A program made the translations under genes and the position numbers. DNA of 63,899 nucleotides, the filler included. It is 8 parts of 8 records of this genome, joined end to end, with 100 filler letters (N's around TTAATTAATTAA, not from the genome) between each part and the next. Parts side by side here need not be neighbours in the genome. Positions count along the whole stretch, not along the records: positions 6,151 to 14,013 come from SRR31156797_33631; 7 more parts are not named here. One strand, given 5' to 3'. The notes beneath the pieces are model-generated. The model was not told the DNA's origin. It ran no database searches and saw only the letters and a list, made by a program, of their open reading frames with translations. This document shows, one piece after another, positions 3,419-59,916 of the stretch. Within the stretch, counting starts at the first letter, position 1; each line of letters begins with the position of its first letter.

Positions 3419-4627
3419 ATGCATCAGCAACCGGAAAATTCAAGCACGCTGTTGAAACAGGGAGAGCTTTATTTCCTGCAAGGGAATCACCAGCTTGCGG
3501 AAAAACACTTTCTCCATGTAATCAAACGATATCCCAACCTTGCAGAAGCCCATAACAACCTTGGGGTTATTTACTGGCAAACAAATCAACTAGAAAAAAG
3601 TATTGAACATTTTAAGCGGGCACTATCAATTAATCCGCAGAACCAGGATGCGATTGCCAACCTGAAACAAATCTCAGATATGCTTAAAAATGATTCCCAG
3701 ATAAAAAACAGCCCCATGGCACAAACAGCATCCGTATCAAAAGTGCTGGCAAGTTTGTCTGATTCTAAGGCCCACACCGGAATAGAGCAAGGAGGACTTT
3801 ACCTTGTGGACCTTGAAAAGAGGGAATGGGAACAGGTCATTAACCTGAACGATCTGCCCATGCCCCCGGAGAAACGGTACCGGGACAGACGTATCAGCGG
3901 AATCGCACAACACAAGGATCAGCTCTATTTAACTGCTGGGGATAAGCTTTTTATCTACAACCGACAGTTCGAACCAATAGAAGCCCACGACAATCCATAC
4001 CTGGAAAACTGCCATGGAATTGTCGCGTCAGGCAACAGGCTTTTTCTGACATCAACCGGGTTTGATTCGATCCTGGTGTTTGACCTGGTCGCCAGAAAAT
4101 TCATTGAAGGTTACCATATAAAATATAGTGCCACCGCCCATAGCCTCCACCTGTTACCATTTAATCCCGAATCGGAGAAAGGCCCATCCTCCGGTAATAC
4201 CATTCATCTGAACACCGTATACATCCATGGGAGCAAACTCTATTTTTCCTGCCAAAAACTTGACCGCTTTTTTTGTGTGCAAGAAAACGGCGTCATGGAC
4301 GCCATGGCCCAAATCCCCTTGGGCACCCATGCTGCAAGACCTTACAAAGAGGGTTTTTTAATCCCTTCGACAAATGGGCCCACCCTGAACCACCTGGATT
4401 TTAACGGCACTATGATTGAATCCTTCAATGCCCCCCTTTCCGTTGAAAGGTCTGATTCCGGATTTACAAGCAGCCTCTGTGTCATCGACAATGATTTAAT
4501 TATAGCAAGCGCTTCTCCGTCCACCCTCCTGGGCTACAGATCCGGACATAATGAGCCGACATTAATTGTCAATATAGCGGTAAAAAACGCCTGCTCCATT
4601 GACGCACTTGAGGTATGGACCCTTTAA
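3419..4627 (+). CDS. TPR + beta-propeller-like conserved hypothetical protein
   Basis: N-terminal TPRs (AEAHNNLGVIYW, ALSINPQNQDA), then a beta-rich repeat domain (GGLYLVDL, NPYLENCHGI, LTSTGFDSILVFDL). ATG 3419 chosen; GTG 3386 is an alternative. Confidence 0.7.
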   Translation: MHQQPENSSTLLKQGELYFLQGNHQLAEKHFLHVIKRYPNLAEAHNNLGVIYWQTNQLEKSIEHFKRALSINPQNQDAIANLKQISDMLKNDSQIKNSPMAQTASVSKVLASLSDSKAHTGIEQGGLYLVDLEKREWEQVINLNDLPMPPEKRYRDRRISGIAQHKDQLYLTAGDKLFIYNRQFEPIEAHDNPYLENCHGIVASGNRLFLTSTGFDSILVFDLVARKFIEGYHIKYSATAHSLHLLPFNPESEKGPSSGNTIHLNTVYIHGSKLYFSCQKLDRFFCVQENGVMDAMAQIPLGTHAARPYKEGFLIPSTNGPTLNHLDFNGTMIESFNAPLSVERSDSGFTSSLCVIDNDLIIASASPSTLLGYRSGHNEPTLIVNIAVKNACSIDALEVWTL

Positions 4628-4643
4628 ACATGGTATTTTTTTG

Positions 4644-6050
4644 ATGAAATCGATTTCAAAAAGCAACAAACTTTTCACCGAAGCCCAAGGCTGCTTCCAT
4701 GCCGGCGACCTGCCAAAGGCCCGGACCCTTTGTCAAAAACTCATACGCATCTCCCCCAACCACGCCGACGCCTATAACATGATGGGATTGATTGCCCATC
4801 TGTCGGGAAAAAATGAGGAAGGGGCAACGCTTATACAAAAGGCGATTCAATTAAACCCGAACGCATCAATATTGCACAACAATTTTGGAAACATTCTTTT
4901 TGCCCAGGGGAAAACCAGACCCGCTCTTAAAGCTTTCTTGAAAAGCGCTGAATTACAACCTGATTTTGCTAAAGCCCATTATAACATCGGCCTTACGTCC
5001 CTGGCCTGCAATGAATATGACCAGGCAATCAATGGTTTTAAACAAGCCATTCAACTTAAACCCGGTTTGGGCGCGGCCTATTGGGGACTGGGCAACGCCC
5101 TGATGAAAAAAAACCAGGTGGTGGCGGCCATTGACTCTTTTACCAGGGCTATTGAAATCGATCCGGCCGATCAGAAATCCAGCGTAGCCTTAAGCATTGT
5201 CCTGACATCCGTCGGTAACACGAAGGCTGCAAAAACCGTGTTAAAGAAAGCGCTCACCCATTTACCGGACAATCCTGATATATTATTCAATCTTGGCAAT
5301 ATTTTTAAGGATGAAAATCAAACAGAAAAAGCCATTGAGTATTTCCAGAGGGCACTTCAAACAATGCCCGCCAATGCCAAGATTCTCTATAATCTTGGAA
5401 CGACCTTTATGGAAGCCAAGCAATACCCAAAGGCCTTGCCCTATCTTGAAAAGGCGCTGAAACAGTCGCCAAACGCCCCGGACATATTAAACAACCTGGG
5501 TCTTATCAATTTTAATTCCGGTAATTTTAAGACAGCCATTGACTATTACAGCCTGGCCATTGAAAAACAGTCCGGTTTTTTCAAAGCCTACAACAATGCC
5601 GGAATCGCCTATAAAAAGCTTGAGCAAGGAGATAAAGCCATGGCAAACTTCAAGAAAGCCATTGCCCTGTCTCCGGAGTTCACCGAAGCATATCATAACC
5701 TTGCCGAAGTCCTGTGGGAGGGAGGGGATCTTGATGGAGCGGCGGAAAACTGCAGACAGGCCATATCCCTGAACCCCGATTTAACCCAGTCCCTTGCCCT
5801 ATATGCCTACATTATGAAATATCAATGCAACTGGACGGAGTTTGAAAAGGCATCGCTTCGCATTGATGATCTTCTTCAGAAAGAACTGAATCAAGGAGAC
5901 GCCATTGGTGAGACTCCTTTTCTGAACCTGATCAGAACCGACGATCCCGTCTGTAACCGAAAAGTTGCAGACGCTTTTGCCCGAAGCACCTCACGATCAG
6001 CAAAAGCGCTGAATATCAACTTTTCATTTGATCCCCCGCCCCAAGCCTGC
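4644..6050 (+). CDS. multi-TPR protein, probable O-GlcNAc transferase (GT41/SPINDLY-like), 3'-truncated
   Basis: About a dozen TPRs (AYNMMG, AHYNIG, ILFNLG, AYNNAG, AYHNLA), followed by QCNW...ETPF, which resembles the linker that precedes bacterial GT41 catalytic domains. The catalytic part is cut off by the contig end. Confidence 0.65.
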
Positions 6051-6150
6051 NNNNNNNNNNNNNNNNNNNNNNNNNNNNNNNNNNNNNNNNNNNNTTAATT
6101 AATTAANNNNNNNNNNNNNNNNNNNNNNNNNNNNNNNNNNNNNNNNNNNN
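6051..6150. other. artificial contig linker
   Basis: N44-TTAATTAATTAA-N44. Confidence 0.99.
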
Positions 6151-6193
6151 CCTGTTTTTCAAAGAGCGAAATCAAAGATTGATGGCACATGAG

Positions 6194-6847
6194 TTATCCC
6201 TTTTTTATGGAAACTACGCGTATCTTGTCCACCATTAAGGAGATCAGGAAGACGCTGCCGGAAGCCATGATAACCGAAGCGCCTGATATGAGATCGTACC
6301 GATACGACAGCCACAGGCCGGTGACGGAAAAGACCGCACCGAGTAGACTTGAAGCCACCATCATCTGAATTAGGGAGTTGGCGTATTTTTCGACAATGAA
6401 CGAAGGAATCGTCAAAAGGGCGATGACCAGAATGAGGCCGACGACCTGTATGACCATAACAATGGTGACAGCCAGCATGCCGATCAGGCCGAAATAGAGC
6501 TTTTTAACCGGAACGCCCCTGATTCGGGCGTATTCCTCATCATCGGAGATGGCCAAAAGGTCCTGGTAATAATAAAAACCCGCAGTCGTCATGATAACGC
6601 CGATAACGGCCATGAGGTTGAGATCCGACCTGGGAACGGTGAGAATACTGCCGAAAAGATAGCTCATCAGGTCCACGTTATAACCAGGCGTCATGTCGAT
6701 AAAAATAATGCCGAAGGCCATACCGAGTGCTCATATCACCTCGATGATCGTATCGGCACGATACTTAGCAGTATAAAGGTTCACATCCTCAAGTACGGTT
6801 TCCCCACTATAGGCGAAATCAAGATTGTTAATGTAGATGATCGTCAT
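6194..6847 (-). pseudogene. znuB: znuC'-'znuB deletion fusion pseudogene (Zn/Mn ABC ATPase N-terminus joined to the permease C-terminal part, with an internal TGA)
   Basis: One frame reads MTIIYINNLDFAYSGETVLEDVNL (ABC ATPase start, no Walker A), then [43 protein letters not shown] (ABC-3 permease). The TGA at 6733-6731 lies where a Trp would be expected. Confidence 0.8.
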
Positions 6848-6858
6848 GAAAGGACCAT

Positions 6859-7821
6859 CTATTTCAGCGCTGCCTTGAACTTGTCTGAGACCTGACGCAA
6901 ATTGGCCATCCACTCTTCAGCCAAAGGATTGGCAAAAGCCACCTGGCCACCAATCTCCCGTGCGATGAGTTCCGCACTTTTGGTTGAAAACTGGGGCTGT
7001 ACGAAAATTACCTTGATGCCATTTTCCCTCGCATGCTGGATCAATTTCTCCAACTGAGCAGGTTTGGGGTCTTTGCCTTCAATTTCGATGGGCACCTGTT
7101 CGAGCCCATAGGCATCGGCAAAATAGCCCCAGGCTGGATGGAATACCATAAATTGCAGGCCCGTTTCACCAACGAAGGTCTTTTTCAGATCGGTGTCCAA
7201 TTGATCTATCTTCGCTGCAAATGCTTTATAGTTGGCTTCATAAACACTCCGATGCACCGGATCGACCTCTTGCAGCGCAGCCAGAATGGTTTGGGACTGG
7301 ATTTTCACCAGCGGTGGCGACAGCCAGATGTGAGGATCAAGTCCGGCGTTTTCGTGGTGACCTTCATCATGCCCCTTTTCCTCATGGTGGTCAGCTTTTT
7401 CATGATCATGCCCATCCTCATGATGGTCGGCATCATGGTGATCCTCTGCGGAGTCTTCATGGTGGTGGGCAGCCATGGCGCGCTTTTCGATACCATGGTC
7501 CGTGTGTACCACACGCATGCTTGGATTGGTCGCAGCGATTTTTTCAAGCCAGGCGTTTTCGAAAGGGACACCGATGGCAAGATATAGTTTTGCCTTTGAT
7601 AGATCGGCCATCTGTTGGGGTTTGGGCTCATAGGTGGCGGGGCTGGAACCGGGCTGGACCATGGTCTGCACGTCCACCAAGTCCTTGCCAATTTGTTGCA
7701 CGAAGAATTTTTGCGGCACGATGCTGACAAACACGGGGATCTTGTCGGATGCAAAACTATTTCCCATAAATGTCACAAAAACAAATACAAAGAAAACAAA
7801 TAGTGTAGTCCAGCGATTCAT
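6859..7821 (-). CDS. znuA: zinc ABC transporter substrate-binding protein with His-rich loop
   Basis: Signal peptide, SPATYEP, His/Asp/Glu-rich loop, DPHIWLSP, FHPAWGYFA, FVQPQF. Confidence 0.92.
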   Translation of the reverse strand: MNRWTTLFVFFVFVFVTFMGNSFASDKIPVFVSIVPQKFFVQQIGKDLVDVQTMVQPGSSPATYEPKPQQMADLSKAKLYLAIGVPFENAWLEKIAATNPSMRVVHTDHGIEKRAMAAHHHEDSAEDHHDADHHEDGHDHEKADHHEEKGHDEGHHENAGLDPHIWLSPPLVKIQSQTILAALQEVDPVHRSVYEANYKAFAAKIDQLDTDLKKTFVGETGLQFMVFHPAWGYFADAYGLEQVPIEIEGKDPKPAQLEKLIQHARENGIKVIFVQPQFSTKSAELIAREIGGQVAFANPLAEEWMANLRQVSDKFKAALK

Positions 7822-7972
7822 TTCAGCCTCCTTTCGCAGGGGAACGGTTTTAGTGATGAGTTTAAACTATGCAAATTTGTTTATCCTTCTTTATCGTTGA
7901 ATCATTCACCGAATAGACTTATTAATGCCTTAATATATATATTAGAAAATATAATTACACCAAAAAATAATT

Positions 7973-7991
7973 AATGCAATATTATTGCATT
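7973..7991. promoter_or_regulatory. palindromic operator, putative Zur (Fur-family) box
   Basis: Perfect 8-3-8 inverted repeat AATGCAAT-att-ATTGCATT between divergent znuA and the hydantoinase-like operon. An extra half-site AATGCAAT lies at 8001-8008. Confidence 0.6.
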
Positions 7992-8034
7992 GATTCTGGG
8001 AATGCAATATAGATTTCGGCGATGAGGTGATCAC

Positions 8035-9696
8035 ATGAATATTCGTTCCAGGGATGCGGTGTACGGTATTGGTATCGACACTGGCGGCACCTATACTGAC
8101 GCGGTTCTTTTCGATCTGCTAAACCATCAGATTATCAGGGTTAGTAAAAAACCGACAATCCACCACTGTCTTGAACAAAGCATTGTTCAGGCACTTGATG
8201 ATATTTTACCTCTCGGTAAAGCCGTAGCTGTTCGGAAAATCGCATTTTCCACTACATTGGCCACAAATGCCATTGTAGAGGGACGCATGAGCAGAGTCGG
8301 CCTGATCGTTATCGGTCAGGTAAAACCGTTTGAAGCGCCGGTGGTTTCGGTTCGGTATGTGGAGGGCGGCCATGATCACCTTGGCCAAGAGGTCATGCCT
8401 CTTAAAGTAGATCAAATCGTTGAAGCAGTTGATGGCTTTAAGGGGCATGTGGACGCCTATGCAGTCGCAGCTTCCTTGAGCATCGAAAACCAAACGCATG
8501 AGAAAGTGGCAGCCAAGGCCATTGAATTGGTGGATCGGAAACCGGTTGTCTGTTCCAGCGAAGTCAGTTCCAAAGCGGGCATCCGTGAAAGGGCCGCCAC
8601 CGCGGTCCTCCATGCCAGCTTGATGCCCGTCATCCAGGAGTTCGCCAACCAAATCAGCCAGCTAAAGAAGGATCGGCTCCTTATTGCCGACACGCGGATT
8701 ATTCGAGGCGACGCCACGGCCAGCGATCTGAAACATGCTGTCGCGCGTGCCGCCAGCACCGTGGCCAGTGGTCCTGCTGCAACGGCTTTTTTCGGGGCCA
8801 AATCCACTGCTGCCAAGTTGGCGATGGTTGTTGACGTCGGCGGTACGACTACGGATATCACCTTCATTAAAAATGGAAAACCGGTGATTTCAACTGAAGG
8901 CAGTCTGATCGACCTCTGGCAGACGCAAATTGATGCCGTCGATATGCAAACCGTCGGTATCGGTGGTGACAGCCTTGTACGGCTAAACCGGTCAGGACAG
9001 CTGAGCGTCGGTCCTTTGCGGGTTCAACCGTTGGCAATGGCCCAAGGCATTCCTGATCCGTCAAGTTGGATCGGAGAGGAAAATCGTTGCCGATGGATTA
9101 TCAACGTCAACTCAAAAAAACAAGCCCAACCCACCACCTTGGATCCCGTTCTCGCCCACCTTCTGCGCGAGAAAGGGGCAACCCCAGCTGATATGATCGC
9201 CCAAATGGGTATGTCCGAATTTGGGCTTGACCGCCGGTTGGAAGATTTGGCTTTCAACAATCAAATTTCCGCAGTGGGCTTTACACCGACTGATGCGCTT
9301 CATGTGCTCGGCAAGTCTCAATTGGGAAACGCGGCTGCATCCATTGCAGGCGCTCGAATTCTGGCGGATTTGCGAGACGAGGAGATTGAGGCCTTTTCCA
9401 AAGCGGTTCTTGATGCGACGTATCAGAAAATTTCGAACGCCATTTTAGCCTACGCGTTTACGAAACAGACCGGAACGTCCATGGAGGCACTCACCTCGTT
9501 AAACCAAGATGTTCCGCTTATTTCTTGCCGCTTCAAGCTCGAAGTCCCCATCGTTGGTATCGGAGCAGCAGCCCGTTATCTTCTGCCTGAAGTGGCCAAC
9601 AGGTTACAGACCCAGGCGATATTCCCGTCACACTTCGAGGTGGGAAATGCCCTGGGCGCCATTATGATTGCATTGAACGGTGAAAGGGAAAAATGA
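8035..9696 (+). CDS. hydantoinase/oxoprolinase A-family (actin-like ATPase) protein
   Basis: GIDTGGTYTDAV, STTLATNAIVEG, SGPAA, DVGGTTTD, GIGGDS, FTPTDALHVLG, EVGNALGA. RBS GAGGTG. Confidence 0.9.
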   Translation: MNIRSRDAVYGIGIDTGGTYTDAVLFDLLNHQIIRVSKKPTIHHCLEQSIVQALDDILPLGKAVAVRKIAFSTTLATNAIVEGRMSRVGLIVIGQVKPFEAPVVSVRYVEGGHDHLGQEVMPLKVDQIVEAVDGFKGHVDAYAVAASLSIENQTHEKVAAKAIELVDRKPVVCSSEVSSKAGIRERAATAVLHASLMPVIQEFANQISQLKKDRLLIADTRIIRGDATASDLKHAVARAASTVASGPAATAFFGAKSTAAKLAMVVDVGGTTTDITFIKNGKPVISTEGSLIDLWQTQIDAVDMQTVGIGGDSLVRLNRSGQLSVGPLRVQPLAMAQGIPDPSSWIGEENRCRWIINVNSKKQAQPTTLDPVLAHLLREKGATPADMIAQMGMSEFGLDRRLEDLAFNNQISAVGFTPTDALHVLGKSQLGNAAASIAGARILADLRDEEIEAFSKAVLDATYQKISNAILAYAFTKQTGTSMEALTSLNQDVPLISCRFKLEVPIVGIGAAARYLLPEVANRLQTQAIFPSHFEVGNALGAIMIALNGEREK

Positions 9697-10070
9697 AAAC
9701 GCTCACTCCCAGACAGGATCATGCCGGCAGCTGTTTTGAGGCAACATTGGAGGTCGCCAGTGAAACCAGGGATACTGTTGTCATTCACGGTTGGCTTTAT
9801 AACCAGGAAAACTGGATCCTGCATGCCTGGTGCGAAGTGGATGAATGGGTCATCGACCTTACCGAAACACGGGAACCCATCGACAAGTCCACTTACTATC
9901 GGATCATGGGCGCCACGCCCGAGAGATCCATCCGCTATAATCGACAGGATTTTTTTGCCATGGCGGCAAAGCATCGGCATTTTGGGCCATTCGACAAGAC
10001 CTTTTTCTTTTCGGAAAAGACGTTAAGAGATCCCCTGCTTTCTTTGAGGTCCCCACATGAGAAAAAATAA
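9693..10070 (+). CDS. small hypothetical protein with transglutaminase/papain-like C-H-D motif pattern
   Basis: ATGA overlap with the upstream gene. Motifs GSC14FE, H44AWCE, ID55LT. Confidence 0.7.
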
Positions 10071-11106
10071 AGATCAATCAAAAACGCCTTTCCAGCGGAT
10101 ACCAGTGACCATCCTCACTGGGTTTCTCGGTTCCGGGAAAACGACTTTACTGAATTGGATTCTAAAAGAAAATCACGGCAAAAAAATTGCGGTGATCGAA
10201 AACGAATTCGGCGAAGTCGGGATCGACAACGACCTGGTGGTCGGAGCCGAGGAAGAAATCTTCGAAATGAACAACGGATGCATCTGCTGCACGGTTCGAG
10301 GAGACCTGATCCGCATCCTGCGCAACCTGCTGAAGCGTCGTGACCAATTCGATTCCATCATGATCGAAACCACGGGCCTTGCCGATCCGGGGCCTGTGAT
10401 TCAAACGTTTTTCCTCGAAGAAAGCCTCCGGGAGGCGCTCAGCATAGACGCAGTGGTGACTGTGGTCGATGCCAAGTTCATCGAGGCGCACATCGATAGC
10501 AACGGCAAGACCAAGGAACAAATTGCTTTTGCAGACGTGATTTTGCTCAACAAGACGGATCTGGTCAATGCAGCAACCTTGGATCGATTGGAGGGCAGGA
10601 TCCGCAGAATGAATGCCGCCGCGGCCATCCACCGGACCGTCAATGCTGCCATCGATATGGATCAGGTGCTTAACCAAGGTGGTTTCAAGTTGGACCGAGC
10701 CTTGTTGGTCGACCCTGATTTTTTGCAACCAGAGTACCCCTTCGAAATGGACGGAATAGAACCGCTCGGACCCGTCGCCAGCCGTGAGTTCAAACATCGG
10801 CACGAACACGATGAAGATGTAACCTCTGTGGGCATTTCAATTCCAGGGGACCTCAGGCTGGGGTTGCTCGAAGCCTGGCTGCAGGTTTTGATAACAACAG
10901 AGGGGGAAAATATTTTTCGCATGAAGGGCGTACTGAGTATCAGCAACTATGAAGAGCGCTACATCATTCAGGGAGTTCACATGTTTTTGGAAGGAAAATT
11001 CGATCGTGCATGGGGGCAAGAAGAGCGCCGGAACAAACTGGTCTTTATCGGTCGAAACCTCAACCGCGATTTTCTCAATATTGGGTTTAAAGGGTGCCTG
11101 GCTTGA
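10057..11106 (+). CDS. COG0523/CobW-family G3E GTPase metallochaperone
   Basis: [33 protein letters not shown], His patch HRHEHD, C-terminal RMKG...QGV...LVFIGR. Confidence 0.95.
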
Positions 11107-11223
11107 ACAGCATTTTACTAGATATAGGAGAAAAATGATGACCAGTGATTCAGTACGTTGAAAAAAGGCGATTTAGCCCTCAATTATTACAAGCCTGTTT
11201 ATGGGCACTTAGATTTTTTTTAG

Positions 11224-12441
11224 ATGCGTTCTAAGTCAACTGTATCATACACTGAAACAAAACAGCTTATGCCAACCACACAAAAAACGAACCCGACCAC
11301 CCGTAACACAGGTCATGCACACGGTTCATCAACAAAAAAAACGTCTATCGCCTATCTCCCAGCGCTTTTTCTGGTAGCATCCATTCTTTTTCTTCCCACA
11401 GGATCTGATGCCGGGGCCCGCAATTCCCTGGCTATTGTTTTTATCAGTATCGTACTCGAGGCCATTCCTTTTATGTTGATGGGCTCCCTTGTAGGCGGGA
11501 TTATTGAAGCCTTTGTCAGCCGAGAGCGCATGGCCAATCTCTTACCCCGAAAGGGTTGGCTGACCGTATCTCTTGCGGCTGCCGCAGGGATTGTTTTTCC
11601 GGTTTGTGAATGCGCGGTCGTACCGGTGGTACGCCGTTTGATCGGTAAAGGACTGCCGTTTTCTGCCGCCATTGCCTATCTTTTAGGTGGTCCCATCGTG
11701 AACCCCATCGTAGCGGCATCAACGGCGCTGGCCTATGCATTTGATTGGCGAATCGTCATTCTGCGCCTGGGTTTGGGATATGGGCTTGCTGTTGCTATCG
11801 GAATGCTCATGGGCAGGATGTTTGCCGGCTCCGAGGCCATCAAGAACAATGCCTCCGACCTCGAGAACAATACCTTCTCCTGCGGCTGCCATGCCCCTCT
11901 TTTGGAGCATCCTCGTGGCAAGACGCTTTCCGAGACAACGATAGCTTCTCTGATTGTCACAAAACAAACTGACAACACCATGACATGCGGTTGCGGTCAC
12001 AGTCACCTGGCATTGGTGGACTGGGTCGACAAGGCCGGGGCGGCCTTGTCACACGCCATGGATGATTTTTTAGCAGTGGGGCACTATCTTATCATCGGCG
12101 CTTTCATCGCCGCACTGGCACAGACCTATATCGACCGTTCAAGCTTTTTGAGTTTGTCGTCCGCTCCTGTATTGTCCGTAGCAGTCATGATGGCCCTGGC
12201 GATCCTGCTCAATCTGTGCTCCGAGGCGGATGCTTTCATTGCCGCCTCTTTTCAAGGGTTGATGCCCTTGCCAGCTCAAATGGCCTTTTTATTGACCGGT
12301 CCCATGTTCGACATCAAACTTCTGCTCATGTATCAAAGCCTTTTTAAACGAAAAACCATTGTTGTCCTATCGACACTTATTCTTGCGGGAGTTCTGGTGA
12401 TTTCGGTTGGCCTTGAAATGATAAATGTGGGGTTTCAATGA
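11224..12441 (+). CDS. COG0701/DUF318 (YcgR-like) permease
   Basis: SIVLEAIPF, FPVCECAVVPV, PIVNP, LCSEADAFIA, GPMFDIK, and a loop with CGCH and CGCGHSH. Start uncertain (11224 or 11269). Confidence 0.88.
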   Translation: MRSKSTVSYTETKQLMPTTQKTNPTTRNTGHAHGSSTKKTSIAYLPALFLVASILFLPTGSDAGARNSLAIVFISIVLEAIPFMLMGSLVGGIIEAFVSRERMANLLPRKGWLTVSLAAAAGIVFPVCECAVVPVVRRLIGKGLPFSAAIAYLLGGPIVNPIVAASTALAYAFDWRIVILRLGLGYGLAVAIGMLMGRMFAGSEAIKNNASDLENNTFSCGCHAPLLEHPRGKTLSETTIASLIVTKQTDNTMTCGCGHSHLALVDWVDKAGAALSHAMDDFLAVGHYLIIGAFIAALAQTYIDRSSFLSLSSAPVLSVAVMMALAILLNLCSEADAFIAASFQGLMPLPAQMAFLLTGPMFDIKLLLMYQSLFKRKTIVVLSTLILAGVLVISVGLEMINVGFQ

Positions 12442-13211
12442 AACCGCTGGAAGAACATCTCAAGCGCTGGTTGCATCCTACTCTATTCGCCATCTGGACC
12501 GTTTTTCTGATCTATCTTTTGGCCAGCGGGAGGTATATGGCTTTCCTGCGGCCTGAATTTGGCCTGCTTTTGGCCGTTGCACACTTTGTCGCCATGGGCT
12601 TCATGCTCACGGCCATGTTTCGTCAAAAAGCAACAGTGATGGATGCGTCTGCTATTTTGCGTACCCTGGTGCTTTTAGTCCCGGTCGTCTATTCGTTAGC
12701 CATGCCTGACACCATGTTAGGGAATCAAGCGTTTAAAAAAAGATTCATCGGAACCAATTACGGCGCCATAAACCGGCAGACGCGCCCCATCCTTTCCCCA
12801 GAAGAATCTGGAGGCAATCCGGCTGTTACGGTACCACCGGAAGAATTGGAAAGCCCCCGGGAACAATCACCTCAGGAACGAACGATCCTTGAGGTTTTGC
12901 TCAATCCCAATCTTTACAACGGACAACGTGTAATCGTCACAGGAATGATTCTACGTGATGAGCAACTCAAACCGTATTTCGGTGGTAAGGACATCGCTGT
13001 CTATCGCTTCTTGATCAATTGTTGCGCCGCGGACGCGTTACCTCTGGCGATTGCACTGGATTCGGATCAGGCAGGTGAGTTTGTCCATGACCAGTGGGTG
13101 CAGGTGGATGGGATATTCGATCTTCAGCAGATCAATGGCAAGCCGGTTCCAATGGTTTCAAACCCCCGAATCAAGCTGGTGGAAGCGCCTTCAGTTCCTT
13201 ATCTCTTCTGA
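12438..13211 (+). CDS. TIGR03943/DUF1980 (YcgQ-like) membrane protein
   Basis: Three N-terminal TM segments, YNGQRVIVTG, RFLINCCAADA, WVQVDG, terminal PYLF. ATGA-coupled to the permease. Confidence 0.88.
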   Translation: MKPLEEHLKRWLHPTLFAIWTVFLIYLLASGRYMAFLRPEFGLLLAVAHFVAMGFMLTAMFRQKATVMDASAILRTLVLLVPVVYSLAMPDTMLGNQAFKKRFIGTNYGAINRQTRPILSPEESGGNPAVTVPPEELESPREQSPQERTILEVLLNPNLYNGQRVIVTGMILRDEQLKPYFGGKDIAVYRFLINCCAADALPLAIALDSDQAGEFVHDQWVQVDGIFDLQQINGKPVPMVSNPRIKLVEAPSVPYLF

Positions 13212-13482
13212 CCGAACACTTCATTGAAAGCCGGAACACAAGCGCCCGGTACTGGCGCCGCGAAGGCATTCGCATCTCTTTCGGTCAGCCAATGGGGGCC
13301 TGAACATCGATACCATCCTATTATTTTTGCTAAAAGACCTAAGAAAAAAGGACCTTTGCGGTATCGGAAACCTCGCCTCCAATTTGACAACCGTATTGTC
13401 ATCAGAAATTTTCGGAATAAAAAAGAAACCTTCTCTTTTTAACGATCCATGCCAATGCACTTGATAAAACCAAAAAGAAGAT

Positions 13483-13845
13483 GTGCCCGTTCAAATCGAT
13501 GTGCCCGGCGCTACAGCCAGACAGCAGACCGATTTTGGCGACGTTTCCGGATATGACAAGATGGGAGCAGAATATTTTTCTTTTGGGGCCGGGACTGACA
13601 TAACCGAGTTGCTCCATGGACTTGATGGTGACAGCTGCCAGTGTCCGCACTGGGGTTACGTTGTTAAGGGGGCCATCACGGCAATTTTCACAGGTGGTAA
13701 AGAAGAGACTTCACGGTTTGGCGATCTGTTCTACTGGCCTCCAGGACACAGTGTGAGAGCGGAAGAAGACACCGATATAGTCATGTTTAGTCCACAAAAA
13801 GAACACAGTGAAGTAATAGCTCATATCCTACAAAAGGTTAGCTGA
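13483..13845 (+). CDS. cupin-domain protein (5' end possibly frameshifted)
   Basis: CQCPHWGYV, GDLFYWPPGH, MFSP..EH. In-frame KEDV precedes the GTG, but a TAA lies at 13465. Confidence 0.75.
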   Translation: MPVQIDVPGATARQQTDFGDVSGYDKMGAEYFSFGAGTDITELLHGLDGDSCQCPHWGYVVKGAITAIFTGGKEETSRFGDLFYWPPGHSVRAEEDTDIVMFSPQKEHSEVIAHILQKVS

Positions 13846-13889
13846 TAAGCAATGTTAAACAATTGCTACAACCAAAGCTAACTTTATTT

Positions 13890-13927
13890 AAAGCGTAGAA
13901 CCTACCAACGTTCTACGCTTTCATTTT
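13890..13927 (+). terminator. intrinsic terminator
   Basis: 12-bp stem AAAGCGTAGAAC/GTTCTACGCTTT followed by a T-rich tract. Confidence 0.7.
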
Positions 13928-28597: not shown

Positions 28598-28823
<226 letters not shown>

Positions 28824-28923
28824 NNNNNNNNNNNNNNNNNNNNNNNNNNNNNNNNNNNNNNNNNNNNTTAATTAATTAANNNNNNNNNNNNNNNNNNNNN
28901 NNNNNNNNNNNNNNNNNNNNNNN
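28824..28923. other. artificial contig linker
   Basis: N44-TTAATTAATTAA-N44. Confidence 0.99.
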
Positions 28924-58361: not shown

Positions 58362-58461
58362 NNNNNNNNNNNNNNNNNNNNNNNNNNNNNNNNNNNNNNN
58401 NNNNNTTAATTAATTAANNNNNNNNNNNNNNNNNNNNNNNNNNNNNNNNNNNNNNNNNNNN
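58362..58461. other. artificial contig linker
   Basis: N44-TTAATTAATTAA-N44. Confidence 0.99.
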
Positions 58462-59916
58462 GAGGAACTGCAGGCCGCGGTTGGTGTATTTTTTGGCGAT
58501 CGAAATGACCAGGCGCAGGTTGGCCTCGATCATTTCCTTTTTCGCCTTGGCGGCCTCGCGTTCGCCCTTCTGGACGGTGGCGACGATACGCCTGAATTCG
58601 CTGACCGGAAGCCCGGTCTCGCGTGAGATCTCGGCGACACTGTCCCTGAGATCCTTGATGTCGATGGCGTGTTTCTCGACGAACTTCTTCCAGCCGCGGC
58701 CCGGCAGCTTGCCCACCGTGCGCGTCCAGTTGGGCGTCAGCTCGTTGCCGTAATACTGATCGAGGAAGTCTTCGCGCTTGACCCGGCAGCCGACCGCCAG
58801 GCGCAACAGGCGCCCTTCCAGATGCATCAACAGCTTGTTCAGCTCATAAAGCTGTTCGACCAGTTGCTCGATACGGCCGTTGTTCAGGCGAACGTCCTCG
58901 AGAAGGCCGATCAGTTCCTGGCGCAGCTTCTGATAGCGCTTTTCCTGCGCCGTTTTCAGCGTCTCGCCCTTGTGCACGGCTTCGACCCGCTGCACCTGAA
59001 GGCGGTGGAATTTTTTGTAGGTGCCGTTGATCTGCTTGAAGATCTCCAGAACCTGCGGCGTCAGCTGCAATTCCATGGCAGCCAAGGACACATTGAATTC
59101 CTCGGTATCGTCGTCCTCGCCGTTGGCGTCTTCCGTCTTGGCTTCGCCCTCTTTGCCTTCCTCACCTTCCTCGCTTACGGCCGTTTCGTCCGTGGAATCG
59201 TCGCCGGCTTCGTCGGCGTCTTCAACTCCGTCGCCCTCTTCGGCCGCGGCGTCCTTGGACTCGCCTTCGCCGTCCTTGGCTTCTTCGCCTTCTTCGCCTT
59301 CCTCATCTTCGGCCATCTCGGCGGCGGCGGCTTCGATCTGCTGGCCGTTCGGCCCGCCGCCGTAGGTTGCCTCGAGATCGATGATGTCGCGAAGCAGAAT
59401 GTGTTCCTCGACCAGGTCGTCGTGCCATTGGACGATGGCGCGCACCGTCAGCGGGCTCTCGCAGATGCCGCCGATCATCATTTCGCGGCCGGCTTCGATC
59501 CGCTTGGCGATGGCGATCTCGCCTTCGCGCGACAGCAACTCGACGCTGCCCATTTCGCGCAAATACATGCGGACCGGATCGTCGGTGCGTCCGATGTCGT
59601 CCTCTTTGACATTGCCGGCAACCGCCGTTTCCGTCTCCGCCGGCTCGGCCTCGCTGGACGCCTCTTCGGCCTCTTCGTTTTCGACGACATTGACCCCCAT
59701 CTCGGAGATCATCGACATCGTGTCTTCGATCTGCTCGGAGGAAACGCTGTCCGGCGGCAGAGCCGCGTTCAGCTCGTCATAGGTGATGTAACCGCGCTCT
59801 TTGCCGCGCGCGATCATCTTCTTGACTGCCGCACCCAGGCTGTCGATCAGCGGGCTGTCGGTTGTGTCTTCCTGGGTTTCGGTGGCTTCTGCCGTCGCAG
59901 CTTGTTTTTCCGTCAT
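58462..59916 (-). CDS. rpoD: primary sigma factor RpoD, 3'-truncated
   Basis: Region 1.1 (GKERGYITYDELN), RTDDPVRMYLREMG, acidic non-conserved region, EANLRLVISIAKKYTNRGLQF. Confidence 0.98.

Follow-up and report, generated by a model that had tools for sequence, protein, structure and literature searches.

A run of five co-directional genes behind a perfect palindrome and opposite znuA raises the question of whether it forms one unit of the response to zinc shortage, and of what an ATPase of the hydantoinase type and a small hydrolase-like protein would do in such a unit. As read from the open reading frames, the genes occupy positions 8035–13211 on the plus strand of the 63,899-nt stretch of DNA analysed here (the window), which has two runs of N, at 6052–6094 and 6108–6150.

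Layout of the locus and its predicted operator

The genes, called g1 to g5 here, encode a 553-aa stand-alone HyuA-type (hydantoinase/oxoprolinase A) ASKHA ATPase (g1, 8035–9696), a small papain/transglutaminase-like protein of 125 aa whose family is uncatalogued (g2, 9693–10070), a 349-aa COG0523 G3E GTPase and putative zinc metallochaperone (g3, 10057–11106), a 405-aa polytopic permease of the ArsP_1 family (COG0701) (g4, 11224–12441) and a 257-aa putative permease subunit, TIGR03943/DUF1980, of the YcgQ/ScfB type (g5, 12438–13211). Overlaps of 4 nt (ATGA) join g1 to g2 and g4 to g5, g2 and g3 overlap by 14 nt, and 117 nt separate g3 from g4. The overlaps and the comparison of sequences support an operon structure, and g1–g5 are probably one Zur-repressed zinc-starvation operon. 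The gene directions, the box, the divergent znuA and the overlaps are all as a sequence-only reading of this DNA had described them.

Divergent from g1, with an operator region common to both, znuA (6859–7821, minus strand; ZnuA Pfam 2.5e-68) encodes a 320-aa zinc ABC-transporter binding protein, and in relatives a znuA 61–76% identical holds the same position. On the same strand, at 6194–6847, a znuC'-'znuB remnant was recognised by tblastn with ZnuC and ZnuB of locus L003 and by reading of the sequence, with ZnuC codons 1–24 fused in frame to ZnuB codons 81–271. As it carries a deletion of about 1 kb and an in-frame TGA (6731–6733), this locus is probably non-functional; a Logan contig from run X1, which probably represents the source sample, covers 6160–13900 with 0 gaps.

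The palindrome (ATGCAAT-ATT-ATTGCAT; ATGCAATATTATTGCAT), a predicted Zur-type operator of 17 bp at 7974–7990, lies 44 nt ahead of the g1 ATG and 152 nt from the start of znuA, and its half-site ATGCAATAT occurs again at 8002–8010. With at most one mismatch, ATGCAA-N5-TTGCAT is found a single time in the window, against a mean of 0.08 in shuffled sequences (n = 50). Apart from two symmetric changes, the palindrome fits the consensus predicted for Desulfovibrio Zur (Zur_D, ATGCAACnnnGTTGCAT) in the passages of Rodionov et al. 2004 on this site (PMC545781). The hexamers TAGAAA-17-AATAAT (plus strand, 7943–7971) show 9 of 12 consensus matches and end 2 nt short of the operator; they are a weak promoter candidate from a consensus scan, which returned 11 sites in all versus 5.8 ± 2.6 in shuffles.

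We compared 48 related loci, 28 of which were able to show a box before g1. Within 700 bp upstream it was present in 19 of the 28 and not found in the other nine, and a SAR324 locus (L006) keeps it with no zinc genes nearby. Four genomes of 6.6–9.6 Mb hold only 14 exact copies of the box, and 0 of its reverse used as control. Nine of these copies are neighbours of znuA, COG0523, ArsP_1/TIGR03943 or g1-g2, and five are not beside zinc genes. By these comparisons the box is linked both to g1-g2 and to zinc genes, and it would be bound by Zur and respond to zinc. The zinc-starvation unit proposed earlier is supported by the fit to the predicted Zur_D site and by the two counts.

The g1-g2 core

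In Pfam, g1 matches Hydant_A_N (2.2e-24) and Hydantoinase_A (2.3e-25), the latter over profile positions 1–145 of 291 only; the HyuA C-terminal domain was not detected by Pfam, and no TM-like segment was found. Its PDB profile matches are alpha-type subunits (6yra, 4.1e-39; 5l9w; 7hk5; 5m45), and GIDTGGT, DVGGTTTD, GGDS and GFTPTDA are invariant across 38 g1 sequences. Hence g1 has the two domains and the ATP-binding motifs of ATP-dependent hydantoinase, oxoprolinase, caprolactamase and ketone carboxylases, but it has 553 aa versus about 690 in the HyuA type, matches half of the Hydantoinase_A profile, lacks HyuB in cis and has a 125-aa Cys-His-Asp protein as partner. It also falls far under all curated NCBIfam cut-offs (CapA 94.7 vs 1000, MfnF 16.7 vs 520). 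A profile scan of the 54 window ORFs of at least 90 aa found no Hydantoinase_B, in agreement with the earlier claim. HyuB was not found anywhere in two of the five genomes with the g1-g2 pair (G002, G004), and the sole HyuB of G001 and G003 is fused to its own HyuA.

For g2 there was no match in Pfam, NCBIfam (even at E ≤ 10) or PHROG, and its relatives number 71 close and 253 representative sequences. The AF2 model (pLDDT 91.4) has a papain/transglutaminase-like fold, in which Cys14 opens helix 13–24, His44 lies on strand 41–49 and Asp55 comes right after strand 52–54; each of the three is at least 90% conserved in 97 sequences, down to 21% identity, and Tyr68, Tyr69, Tyr82 and GHFGPFD are conserved as well. 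Structural neighbours (VIA, Z 5.3–4.3) are Cys-His-Asp folds, the best being the amidases or proteases 3c9q (Z 5.3; which we take to be the N-terminal glutamine amidase), SseI (5.0), LapG (4.8) and protein glutaminase (4.3), although Z values up to 5.3 are modest and may reflect a common arrangement; Foldseek with the model gave nothing at E ≤ 1e-3. Among the relatives, six of 97 touch NCBIfam lasso_biosyn_B2 (best 1.6e-5) and two of 36 touch Pfam Transglut_core3, under its cut-off. The predicted fold and putative triad are therefore supported by comparison, and the name "transglutaminase-like" given earlier stands on fold and remote relatives, not on a direct family match. g2 shares its core fold with lasso peptide B2 protease, LapG/BTLCP, protein glutaminase and 3c9q, and its Cys, His and Asp come in the same sequence and lie in the same places as theirs; it differs from transglutaminase/papain-like hydrolases in being much smaller and in its extra tyrosines and GHFGPFD, and from lasso peptide systems in that genes for a lasso precursor, B1 and C are absent. 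We know of no studied hydrolase of this kind that is linked with a HyuA-type ATPase.

Of the 41 loci whose upstream DNA is long enough to tell, 38 have g2 directly downstream of g1, to which g2 is translationally coupled as judged from the ATGA overlap. Among the 21 loci with at least 3 kb downstream, COG0523 follows the pair in eight and the permease pair does so in ten. By comparison of loci, then, g1-g2 is the constant core, with its conservation supported, and g3, g4 and g5 are variable add-ons. The five genes of the sequence-only reading are thus not one fixed system, but their order is found beyond this contig as well, with g1-g2-COG0523-...-ArsP_1-TIGR03943 recurring in L070, L071, L080 and L084. 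In relatives the pair keeps company with zur-znuB-znuC-znuA, TonB receptors, L33/DksA, HisI, Amidase_2 and DUF3299-NicO. L101 and L103 have it without zinc genes, as is also the case for FolE2 and other isozymes that do not depend on zinc.

In the tree of g1 proteins, those from zinc-linked loci group in a single clade (support 100/98; 15 of 26 tree rows). Unrelated, non-zinc contexts, the other possibility raised earlier, are seen for distant g1 homologues with 37–46% identity (L050–L055), which lack g2. As the six genomes with these distant homologues yielded no g2-like gene, g1 may suffice as an enzyme by itself, with g2 just an accessory. The pair also looks dispensable or decaying in places, because one locus keeps the box and g2 without g1 (L092), another joins g1 residues 1–72 to g2 residues 25–124 (L090), G002 has a g1 stub ahead of ArsP_1, and an internal TAA lies within g1 in G002 and G003.

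The putative chaperone, the membrane pair and known systems

g3 matches cobW (1e-61) and CobW_C (2.6e-19) in Pfam, and its translation contains GCICC (CxCC) and the His-rich HRHEHDED. Its nearest NCBIfam models, both under cut-off, are YjiA-type PRK11537 (253.8 bits vs 361) and ZigA (182.7 vs 600). g4 (ArsP_1, 5.7e-63) has about 7–8 hydrophobic segments and loops rich in Cys and His (FSCGCH..., TCGCGHSH); g5 matches TIGR03943 (102 bits, cut-off 88.8) and DUF1980_C (8e-16), with N-terminal hydrophobic segments, a domain at the C-terminus and two adjacent Cys. Among the control genomes, Bacillus subtilis has a TIGR03943 match too. The family of g4 stands behind Zur-type boxes in L121, L122, L124 and L129 as well, and in L121, L124 and L129 the ArsP_1/TIGR03943 pair has its own boxes without g1-g2.

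The closest described pair is ScfA/ScfB (YcgR/YcgQ) of S. pyogenes, for which the article's account gives an 8-TM permease and a 2-TM partner encoded bicistronically, an infection phenotype and a substrate that is not known (PMC5584981). g4/g5 would be a bicistronic membrane pair of this kind, but unlike ScfAB such pairs are found in this genome and three others behind Zur-type boxes and beside znuA, a placement that points to zinc. Metal transport by g4/g5 would most likely be inward, a direction suggested by regulation; against it, the closest named NCBIfam model for ArsP_1 describes an efflux transporter (SO_0444, 97.7 bits vs cut-off 300).

The locus resembles Zur regulons as set out in the printed articles of Haas et al. 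2009 (PMC2770081) and Rodionov et al. 2004 (PMC545781) in its Fur-family-type palindrome, divergent znuA and CxCC COG0523, and regulons with zinc-independent paralogues in the L33/DksA, HisI and amidase neighbours of its relatives. Word searches of the printed lists in both articles gave no hydantoinase-type or transglutaminase-like member; "hydantoin" has 0 occurrences in the article text of PMC2770081, and in the Zur passages and Table 5 of PMC545781 the members given are znuABC-zur alone. In the literature looked at, we found no printed description of a g1-g2 zinc-starvation operon. What appears to be new is a HyuA-like ATPase with an uncatalogued cysteine-hydrolase-like protein as the constant core of such an operon.

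Proposed function and its alternatives

Studied HyuA-type subunits transfer phosphate to the oxygen of an amide or enol, and a HyuB subunit normally completes the reaction begun by HyuA. In the scheme that we infer, from g1-g2 contact through chemistry and substrate to transport direction, Zur would sit on ATGCAA-N5-TTGCAT, abutting the promoter, common to znuA, and the operon would be switched on at zinc shortage. Its ancient constant unit would be a cytoplasmic two-protein enzyme, and g1 and g2 probably do act together. Made in step with g1, g2 would be a minimal Cys-His-Asp hydrolase replacing HyuB, whose thiol attacks the ATP-activated amide or acyl phosphate before water frees the product. 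On this view the two proteins would make up an amidohydrolase that runs on ATP and needs no metal, standing in for a zinc-dependent one or degrading a zinc-buffering amide. That g1-g2 is such a thiol enzyme, sparing or freeing zinc, is possible but doubtful. The whole statement, in which a Zur-controlled operon joins this zinc-free core to g3 allocating scarce zinc and g4/g5 (YcgR/YcgQ = ScfAB type) carrying metal, is put forward tentatively.

The sequence-only reading had suggested a metal-binding metabolite, or g1 and g2 as COG0523 clients, and nothing in the analysis shows either. A metallophore would arise if g1 activated a carboxylate with ATP and g2, as acyl-transferase or amide synthase, added an amine, the permease pair and TonB receptors then moving the zinc-chelating product. 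TonB-dependent receptors adjoin the pair in L003, L009 and L010, weaker g2 matches include amide synthases and N-acetyltransferases (GdmF, Z 3.5; CtaG, 3.4; NAT, 3.8), and in seven of 21 loci the pair is followed by an FAD oxidoreductase that is linked to a Zur box and weakly matches the Lys/Orn N-monooxygenase type (28.9 bits). We still regard this as unlikely: beyond g1-g2 the window offers no biosynthetic gene and lacks the FAD gene, a pathway would be expected to need more than two genes, L006, L101 and L103 have the pair without a transporter or zinc gene nearby, the FAD gene of Desulfosarcina variabilis pairs with COG0523 rather than g1-g2 (L127), and an oxygen-dependent hydroxylase would suit strict anaerobes poorly. 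Under the client view, g1 and/or g2 would require zinc, be metallated by co-translated g3 and so be kept running at low zinc. Some COG0523 proteins do have dedicated clients, the 14-nt overlap points to coupled synthesis of g2 and g3, and metal could be bound by conserved Cys14, His32, His44, Glu48 and Asp55 of g2 or by GGH.H and H155/E156 of g1. This is very unlikely, however, with COG0523 following the pair in so few loci and the g2 residues occupying papain-type triad positions and kept in phage relatives without a zinc link.

Quite unlikely, too, is zinc mobilisation from proteins or the cell wall by g2, working without zinc as a peptidase, deamidase or muropeptide amidase, with g1 as coupled kinase or ATP-driven helper; g2 would then take over from zinc-dependent amidases/peptidases (AmpD/AmiA/MpaA-type) or remove the metal from proteins that hold zinc. 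The nearest g2 folds (3c9q, protein glutaminase, LapG, SseI) act on proteins, and PeiW/PeiP/PeiR endoisopeptidases, an NlpC/P60 endopeptidase and a CHAP-type amidase follow at Z 3.0–3.5. Phages carry members of the wider g2 family, and a 1553-aa toxin-like protein ends in one, a zinc-type Amidase_2 gene comes after g2 in L085 and L086, and Zur-regulated amidase paralogues are in print (article text of PMC2770081). Yet studied HyuA relatives act on small molecules, going by PDB titles, no substrate-recognition domain is present, and g2 cannot reach the wall because it has neither signal peptide nor TM segment. Finally, another regulator might bind the palindrome, the zinc link being shared neighbourhood and g1-g2 an ordinary lactam/amide catabolic enzyme. 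The Zur assignment of the motif is a prediction both here and in the printed account (PMC545781), the five exact sites away from zinc genes would fit, and remote pairs and unpaired g1 occupy non-zinc contexts. We hold this highly improbable, as a Fur-family gene closes the divergent znu operon in seven loci (L069, L070, L071, L076, L081, L084, L085), the nine sites flanking zinc genes compare with 0 control sites, and SAR324 retains the motif ahead of g1.

The locus, its predicted operator and its order in relatives

ORF calling confirmed, with unchanged coordinates, all five genes which an earlier sequence-only reading had proposed as a zinc-starvation system: g1 (8035-9696, plus strand), with Hydant_A_N and the first half of Hydantoinase_A in Pfam and NCBIfam; g2 (9693-10070, plus strand), an ORF only, without a Pfam or NCBIfam family; g3 (10057-11106, plus strand), with cobW and CobW_C; g4 (11224-12441, plus strand), with ArsP_1; and g5 (12438-13211, plus strand), which matches TIGR03943 with a score above the cut-off. 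ATGA overlaps of 4 nt join g1 to g2 and g4 to g5, g2 and g3 share 14 nt, and a gap of 117 nt separates g3 from g4. The znuA gene (6859-7821, minus strand) is divergent from g1, and between the two lies a perfect 17-bp palindrome, ATGCAATATTATTGCAT (7974-7990), which begins just downstream of a weak promoter-like match (7943-7971).

This palindrome agrees with ATGCAA-N5-TTGCAT at 12 of the 12 outer positions, and at one mismatch or fewer the pattern has a single occurrence in the 63.9-kb window (shuffle mean 0.08). For two species of Desulfovibrio, Rodionov et al. (PMC545781) predicted the Zur site ATGCAACnnnGTTGCAT ahead of znuABC-zur; the window palindrome departs from it by two symmetric changes (one pair) over 14 specified positions, that motif being itself a prediction and not a footprint. 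In the genomes of four relatives (6.6-9.6 Mb) the exact pattern has 3, 3, 4 and 4 copies and the reversed control 0. Nine of these 14 exact sites adjoin zinc genes, namely znuA operons, a COG0523 gene, ArsP_1/TIGR03943 pairs or g1-g2, and the remaining five lie within or beside unrelated genes, as seen in the 50 of 105 neighbouring ORFs scanned for domains. The Zur-like box of the earlier reading thus matches the published predicted motif and recurs before g1 and zinc genes in relatives, and comparative evidence, here and in PMC545781 alike, makes it a predicted Zur operator. It is very likely that znuA and the g1-g5 operon are repressed by Zur and expressed at low zinc: when zinc is low, Zur would leave the shared operator, and both would be transcribed. 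That a regulator other than Zur binds the palindrome seems highly improbable, even with five of the exact sites beside unrelated genes.

The g3 protein contains a CxCC motif (GCICC) and a His-rich stretch, HRHEHDED, scores below the NCBIfam equivalog cut-offs for YjiA-type proteins and ZigA, and is a putative zinc-type metallochaperone of COG0523. For g4, ArsP_1 gave 213.3 bits; the protein has roughly 7-8 hydrophobic segments and two loops rich in Cys and His. For g5, TIGR03943 gave 102 bits (cut-off 88.8); its hydrophobic segments are N-terminal, and two of its Cys are adjacent. Together g4 and g5 are a YcgR/YcgQ pair, that is, of the ScfA/ScfB type. Among the control genomes, B. subtilis has a TIGR03943 match as well. 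According to PMC5584981, ScfA/ScfB of S. pyogenes are needed in infection, and no substrate is assigned to them there. In the genomes of three relatives (G002, twice, G003 and G004), ArsP_1/TIGR03943 pairs adjoin znuA with a Zur-type box ahead of them, independently of g1-g2. This is the best evidence that YcgR/YcgQ-type pairs handle zinc, and the clearest zinc link so far for this uncharacterised pair, a streptococcal virulence factor. For g4/g5, we infer the direction of transport from regulation only. The loci of such pairs by znuA with exact ATGCAA-N5-TTGCAT boxes, in three genomes other than that of the window, are L121, L122, L124 and L129, and L122 has a 121-aa g1 stub between box and ArsP_1. 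ZevAB of Haemophilus, whose proteins a review describes as ABC-type, was dropped as the named relative of g4/g5.

A search with a 30-sequence g2 alignment found 10 loci in species-representative genomes and 38 in metagenomes; because several come from related samples and nearly duplicate each other (L071/L080, L076/L077, L085/L086, L101/L102 and L074/L075, with L010 being the same contig as L056), the locus counts are not independent events. It can be seen that g2 is immediately preceded by g1 in 38 of the 41 loci with at least 300 bp upstream (exceptions L092, L104 and L105). Of the 28 loci holding the g1 start and more than 150 bp beyond it, 19 have the box no more than 700 bp ahead of g1; no box was found before g1 in the other nine (L005, L009, L010, L085, L086, the remote L099 and L101-L103), and in L005, L009 and L010 g1 is preceded by co-directional ABC-3/TonB genes. 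Downstream of g1-g2, the 21 loci with at least 3 kb contain a COG0523 gene (8/21), an FAD oxidoreductase (7/21), ArsP_1 (10/21) and TIGR03943 (10/21). The fullest loci (L070, L071, L080 and L084) read zur-znuB-znuC-znuA, box, g1-g2-COG0523-FAD oxidoreductase-(DUF3299/NicO)-(248-aa protein)-ArsP_1-TIGR03943, and the window locus is a shorter form of this island. The gene order is not unique to this contig; uniqueness is what the earlier reading had named as refuting its proposal. Further neighbours in relatives are TonB-dependent receptors, L33/DksA, HisI, an Amidase_2 gene and a YidD-like fusion; the neighbour scans covered 71 of 133 ORFs in L001-L010 and 43 of 68 in a second set, leaving out distant ORFs and those overlapping g1/g2. 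A SAR324 locus (L006) has two boxes ahead of g1, and zinc genes are absent nearby among its scanned ORFs.

The FAD oxidoreductase, of about 400 aa (NAD_binding_9/DAO, with a weak match of Lys/Orn monooxygenase type), is a recurrent island member of which the window has none. It was observed in L001, L003, L070, L071, L074, L075, L080, L081 and L084, and in D. variabilis (L127, G001:C1:7047976-7057992), where an exact box of its own precedes it and a COG0523 gene runs divergently from it; its reading as an N-hydroxylase is a weak lead. YidD-domain genes also recur near zinc loci (L009 8011-8913, L010 4365-5225, L072 2606-2821 and L122 3365-3736, the last two on the minus strand), and the gene directly after g2 in L009 and L010 encodes a protein of 286-300 aa that contains a YidD-like domain.

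Protein families and ancestry of g1 and g2

The g1 protein gave 86.6 bits with Hydant_A_N (cut-off 25.2) and 89.9 bits with Hydantoinase_A (cut-off 22.9), the latter over profile positions 1-145 of 291 only. D15, G17, G18 and T19, together with D267, G269, G270 and T271, are invariant in 38 g1 sequences as ASKHA phosphate motifs, and we take the D15-T19 and D267-T271 motifs to be ATP-binding. A profile of these 38 sequences matches solved alpha-type subunits, i.e., those of caprolactamase (6yra, 4.1e-39), acetophenone carboxylase, N-methylhydantoinase and acetone carboxylase. The earlier reading had also noted that hydantoinase B is missing, and indeed none of the 54 window ORFs of at least 90 aa has a Hydantoinase_B domain. 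No HyuB adjoins g1 in L001-L010 (71/133 neighbour ORFs scanned), PF02538 (Hydantoinase_B) was not found in genomes G002 and G004, and the sole HyuB of G001 and of G003 is part of a 1250-aa frame, fused to a HyuA of its own; therefore, g1 is without a HyuB partner, unlike canonical HyuA/HyuB enzymes, in which HyuB is encoded alongside or fused. An MfnF-like or H4MPT-linked stand-alone hydantoinase-A was rejected (MfnF 16.7 bits vs 520; TIGR03123 18.8 vs 244.1). Neither g1 nor g2 has a hydrophobic segment.

For g2, of 125 aa, no family match was found in Pfam (E<=10), NCBIfam (<=0.01) or PHROGs. It has 71 close relatives, and a profile search of 1.84 billion representatives returned 253 relatives at E<=1e-3 and 44 at <=1e-10, so that g2 founds a family with 253 or more representative clusters, of which many are from phages. 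In an alignment of 97 small single-domain relatives, from which multi-domain and fragmentary rows were dropped, Cys14, His32, His44, Trp46, Glu48, Asp55, Tyr68, Tyr69, Tyr82, Gly98 and Pro99 are at least 90% conserved. With this alignment, AlphaFold2 gave a pLDDT of 91.4, superseding a model from 30 close sequences with a pLDDT of 57. In the predicted structure Cys14 is at the start of helix 13-24, His44 within strand 41-49 and Asp55 just past strand 52-54; by the model's secondary structure, this placement is the layout of papain and transglutaminases. A VIA-align comparison with 48,161 chains gave a best Z of 5.3 (3c9q, rmsd 3.8, 96 residues aligned), a modest score, followed by SseI (5.0), LapG (4.8) and protein glutaminases (4.3-3.9); most of the recognised top rows are Cys-His(-Asp) folds. 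Foldseek against PDB found nothing at E<=1e-3, and a PDB sequence profile search gave chance-level rows only (E>=0.29). Among the relatives, 2 of 36 remote ones touch Pfam Transglut_core3 below its cut-off, 6 of 97 touch NCBIfam lasso_biosyn_B2 (best 1.6e-5) and 2 of 97 match unnamed PHROGs families. BFVD gave one match, to an unnamed phage protein (1.4e-5), and the nearest ESM Atlas clusters are likewise unnamed phage proteins, YunG-type rows at 0.88 being probably chance. The name "transglutaminase-like" used in the earlier reading is thus a reasonable one, given the model, VIA-align and the remote relatives, but no catalogued family includes g2.

A lasso-peptide or RiPP enzyme was rejected, as B1, C and precursor genes are absent and g2 itself misses the lasso_biosyn_B2 model. 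No longer or fused forms of g2 itself were found, which is weak evidence. Domains like g2 were observed inside proteins of 468-1553 aa without another Pfam domain (P0089, P0109, P0111, P0120 and P0193), in P0111 at the extreme C-terminus, like polymorphic toxins.

In a sample of 401 genomes from the phylum of Desulfosarcina variabilis, a g2-like gene is present in 5 and a g1-like gene (E<=1e-60) in 24, and the two are adjacent in only two, G001 and G394. The g1 homologues without g2 (L050-L055) share 37-46% identity and are full-length (L050 aligned over 540 columns), in unrelated surroundings, e.g., DsbD/thioredoxin, sensor kinases and chemoreceptors (57 ORFs scanned), and solitary g2-like genes (L057-L060) have phage-like or other surroundings. 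In L050 and L053 the unpaired homologue is closely followed by a DsbD_TM gene and one of thioredoxin/AhpC type, which may be shared synteny or a functional tie to thiol-disulfide systems. A g1 tree was built of 26 rows (17 paired, 6 unpaired and 3 outgroups), leaving out truncated and frameshifted copies and most short or duplicate contigs. All zinc-linked paired copies fall in one clade (support 100/98), the remote paired L101/L103 are basal, and unpaired copies lie between these two groups; therefore, the pairing is either old and was lost several times, or arose twice. The g1 genes of G002 and G003 have internal TAA stops, and G002 also has a g1 stub. L092 was seen to have znuA, box and g2 without g1, its close relative L093 keeping both, and L090 joins g1 residues 1-72 to g2 residues 25-124 in a deletion fusion.

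Proposed working of g1 and g2

Zur regulons are the main guide to bacterial life without zinc, and to our knowledge nearly all of their described members are transporters, COG0523 chaperones or paralogues of known zinc enzymes. In this locus, after znuA, the genes most tightly linked to the operator are g1 and g2, two proteins without an assigned function. In a search of papers without their supplements, which may hold regulon tables, no paper was found in which Zur or COG0523 is tied to a protein of hydantoinase type or one resembling transglutaminases, and no relevant literature on DUF1980/TIGR03943/COG0701 in such a combination; "hydantoin" has 0 matches in the COG0523 survey PMC2770081. 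The Zur regulon frame with COG0523 and transporters is known; the constant core of g1 and g2, and the family of g2, are not known from earlier descriptions.

Since g1 and g2 are adjacent in nearly all loci and coupled by ATGA, they are probably made together and act together. Their chemistry might possibly be that of a thiol amidohydrolase powered by ATP, in which g1, like its relatives, would use ATP to activate the oxygen of an amide or carboxyl group, and Cys14 of g2 would attack, taking the role of HyuB. Such an enzyme would not need zinc, and therefore could replace a zinc-dependent amidohydrolase or degrade a zinc-buffering amide. To hypothesize further, and rather doubtfully, g1-g2 could be a new HyuA-class architecture in which the large HyuB is swapped for a 125-aa Cys-His-Asp protein, a metal-free, ATP-driven ring-opening or amide-cleaving enzyme which under Zur control would be a non-homologous substitute for a zinc-dependent cyclic amidohydrolase in Desulfobacterales and SAR324, with a dihydroorotase-, hydantoinase- or oxoprolinase-type step as the obvious candidate. 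Zinc-independent isozymes are known that are regulated only where the matching zinc enzyme coexists, a pattern which the pair without zinc genes in the remote lineages L101 and L103 fits. Against the proposed role stand the g1 homologues which apparently work without g2 in other lineages, the modest structural scores of g2, and the signs of decay in L092, L090, G002 and G003, with no replaced enzyme found.

Other roles were weighed beside it. A metallophore route via g1-g2 seems unlikely, and action at the level of protein or muropeptide quite unlikely; that g1 and g2 are clients of the COG0523 protein, whose gene follows them in a minority of loci, is very improbable. If g1-g2 makes or cleaves a zinc ligand, this would open up zinc handling in sulfate reducers, in whose habitats zinc is scarce owing to sulfide. 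If the pair is instead a replacement enzyme that works without zinc, the zinc-sparing repertoire would gain a non-homologous case and the HyuA reaction a new completion, and a function would be named for an entire family of small proteins, from phages and bacteria, that is in no catalogue. Desulfosarcina variabilis is a cultured carrier, which makes the readings of g1-g2 testable; in str. Montpellier the locus (L004/L012) has znuA, divergent across the box from g1-g2.

Truncated and possibly truncated genes in the window

The znuC and znuB genes, intact at the matching position in relatives, are reduced in the window to a remnant (6194-6847, minus strand) in which ZnuC codons 1-24 are in frame with ZnuB codons 81-271 and a TGA interrupts the frame at 6731-6733; the junction is identical in a Logan contig of the probable source run. 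Two N runs of 43 bases each (6052-6094 and 6108-6150) lie between a TPR gene and the znuB remnant, and because of them the end of ORF 4599-6098 is uncertain. Elsewhere, an rpoD-like ORF (58414-59916, minus strand) has regions 1.1, 1.2 and the non-essential region, lacks regions 2-4 at E<=1e-8 and abuts an unrelated gene, and a 92-aa ORF (28601-28879, plus strand) matches just the first 51 positions of the Cpn60 profile; both may be further truncated genes or assembly joins.
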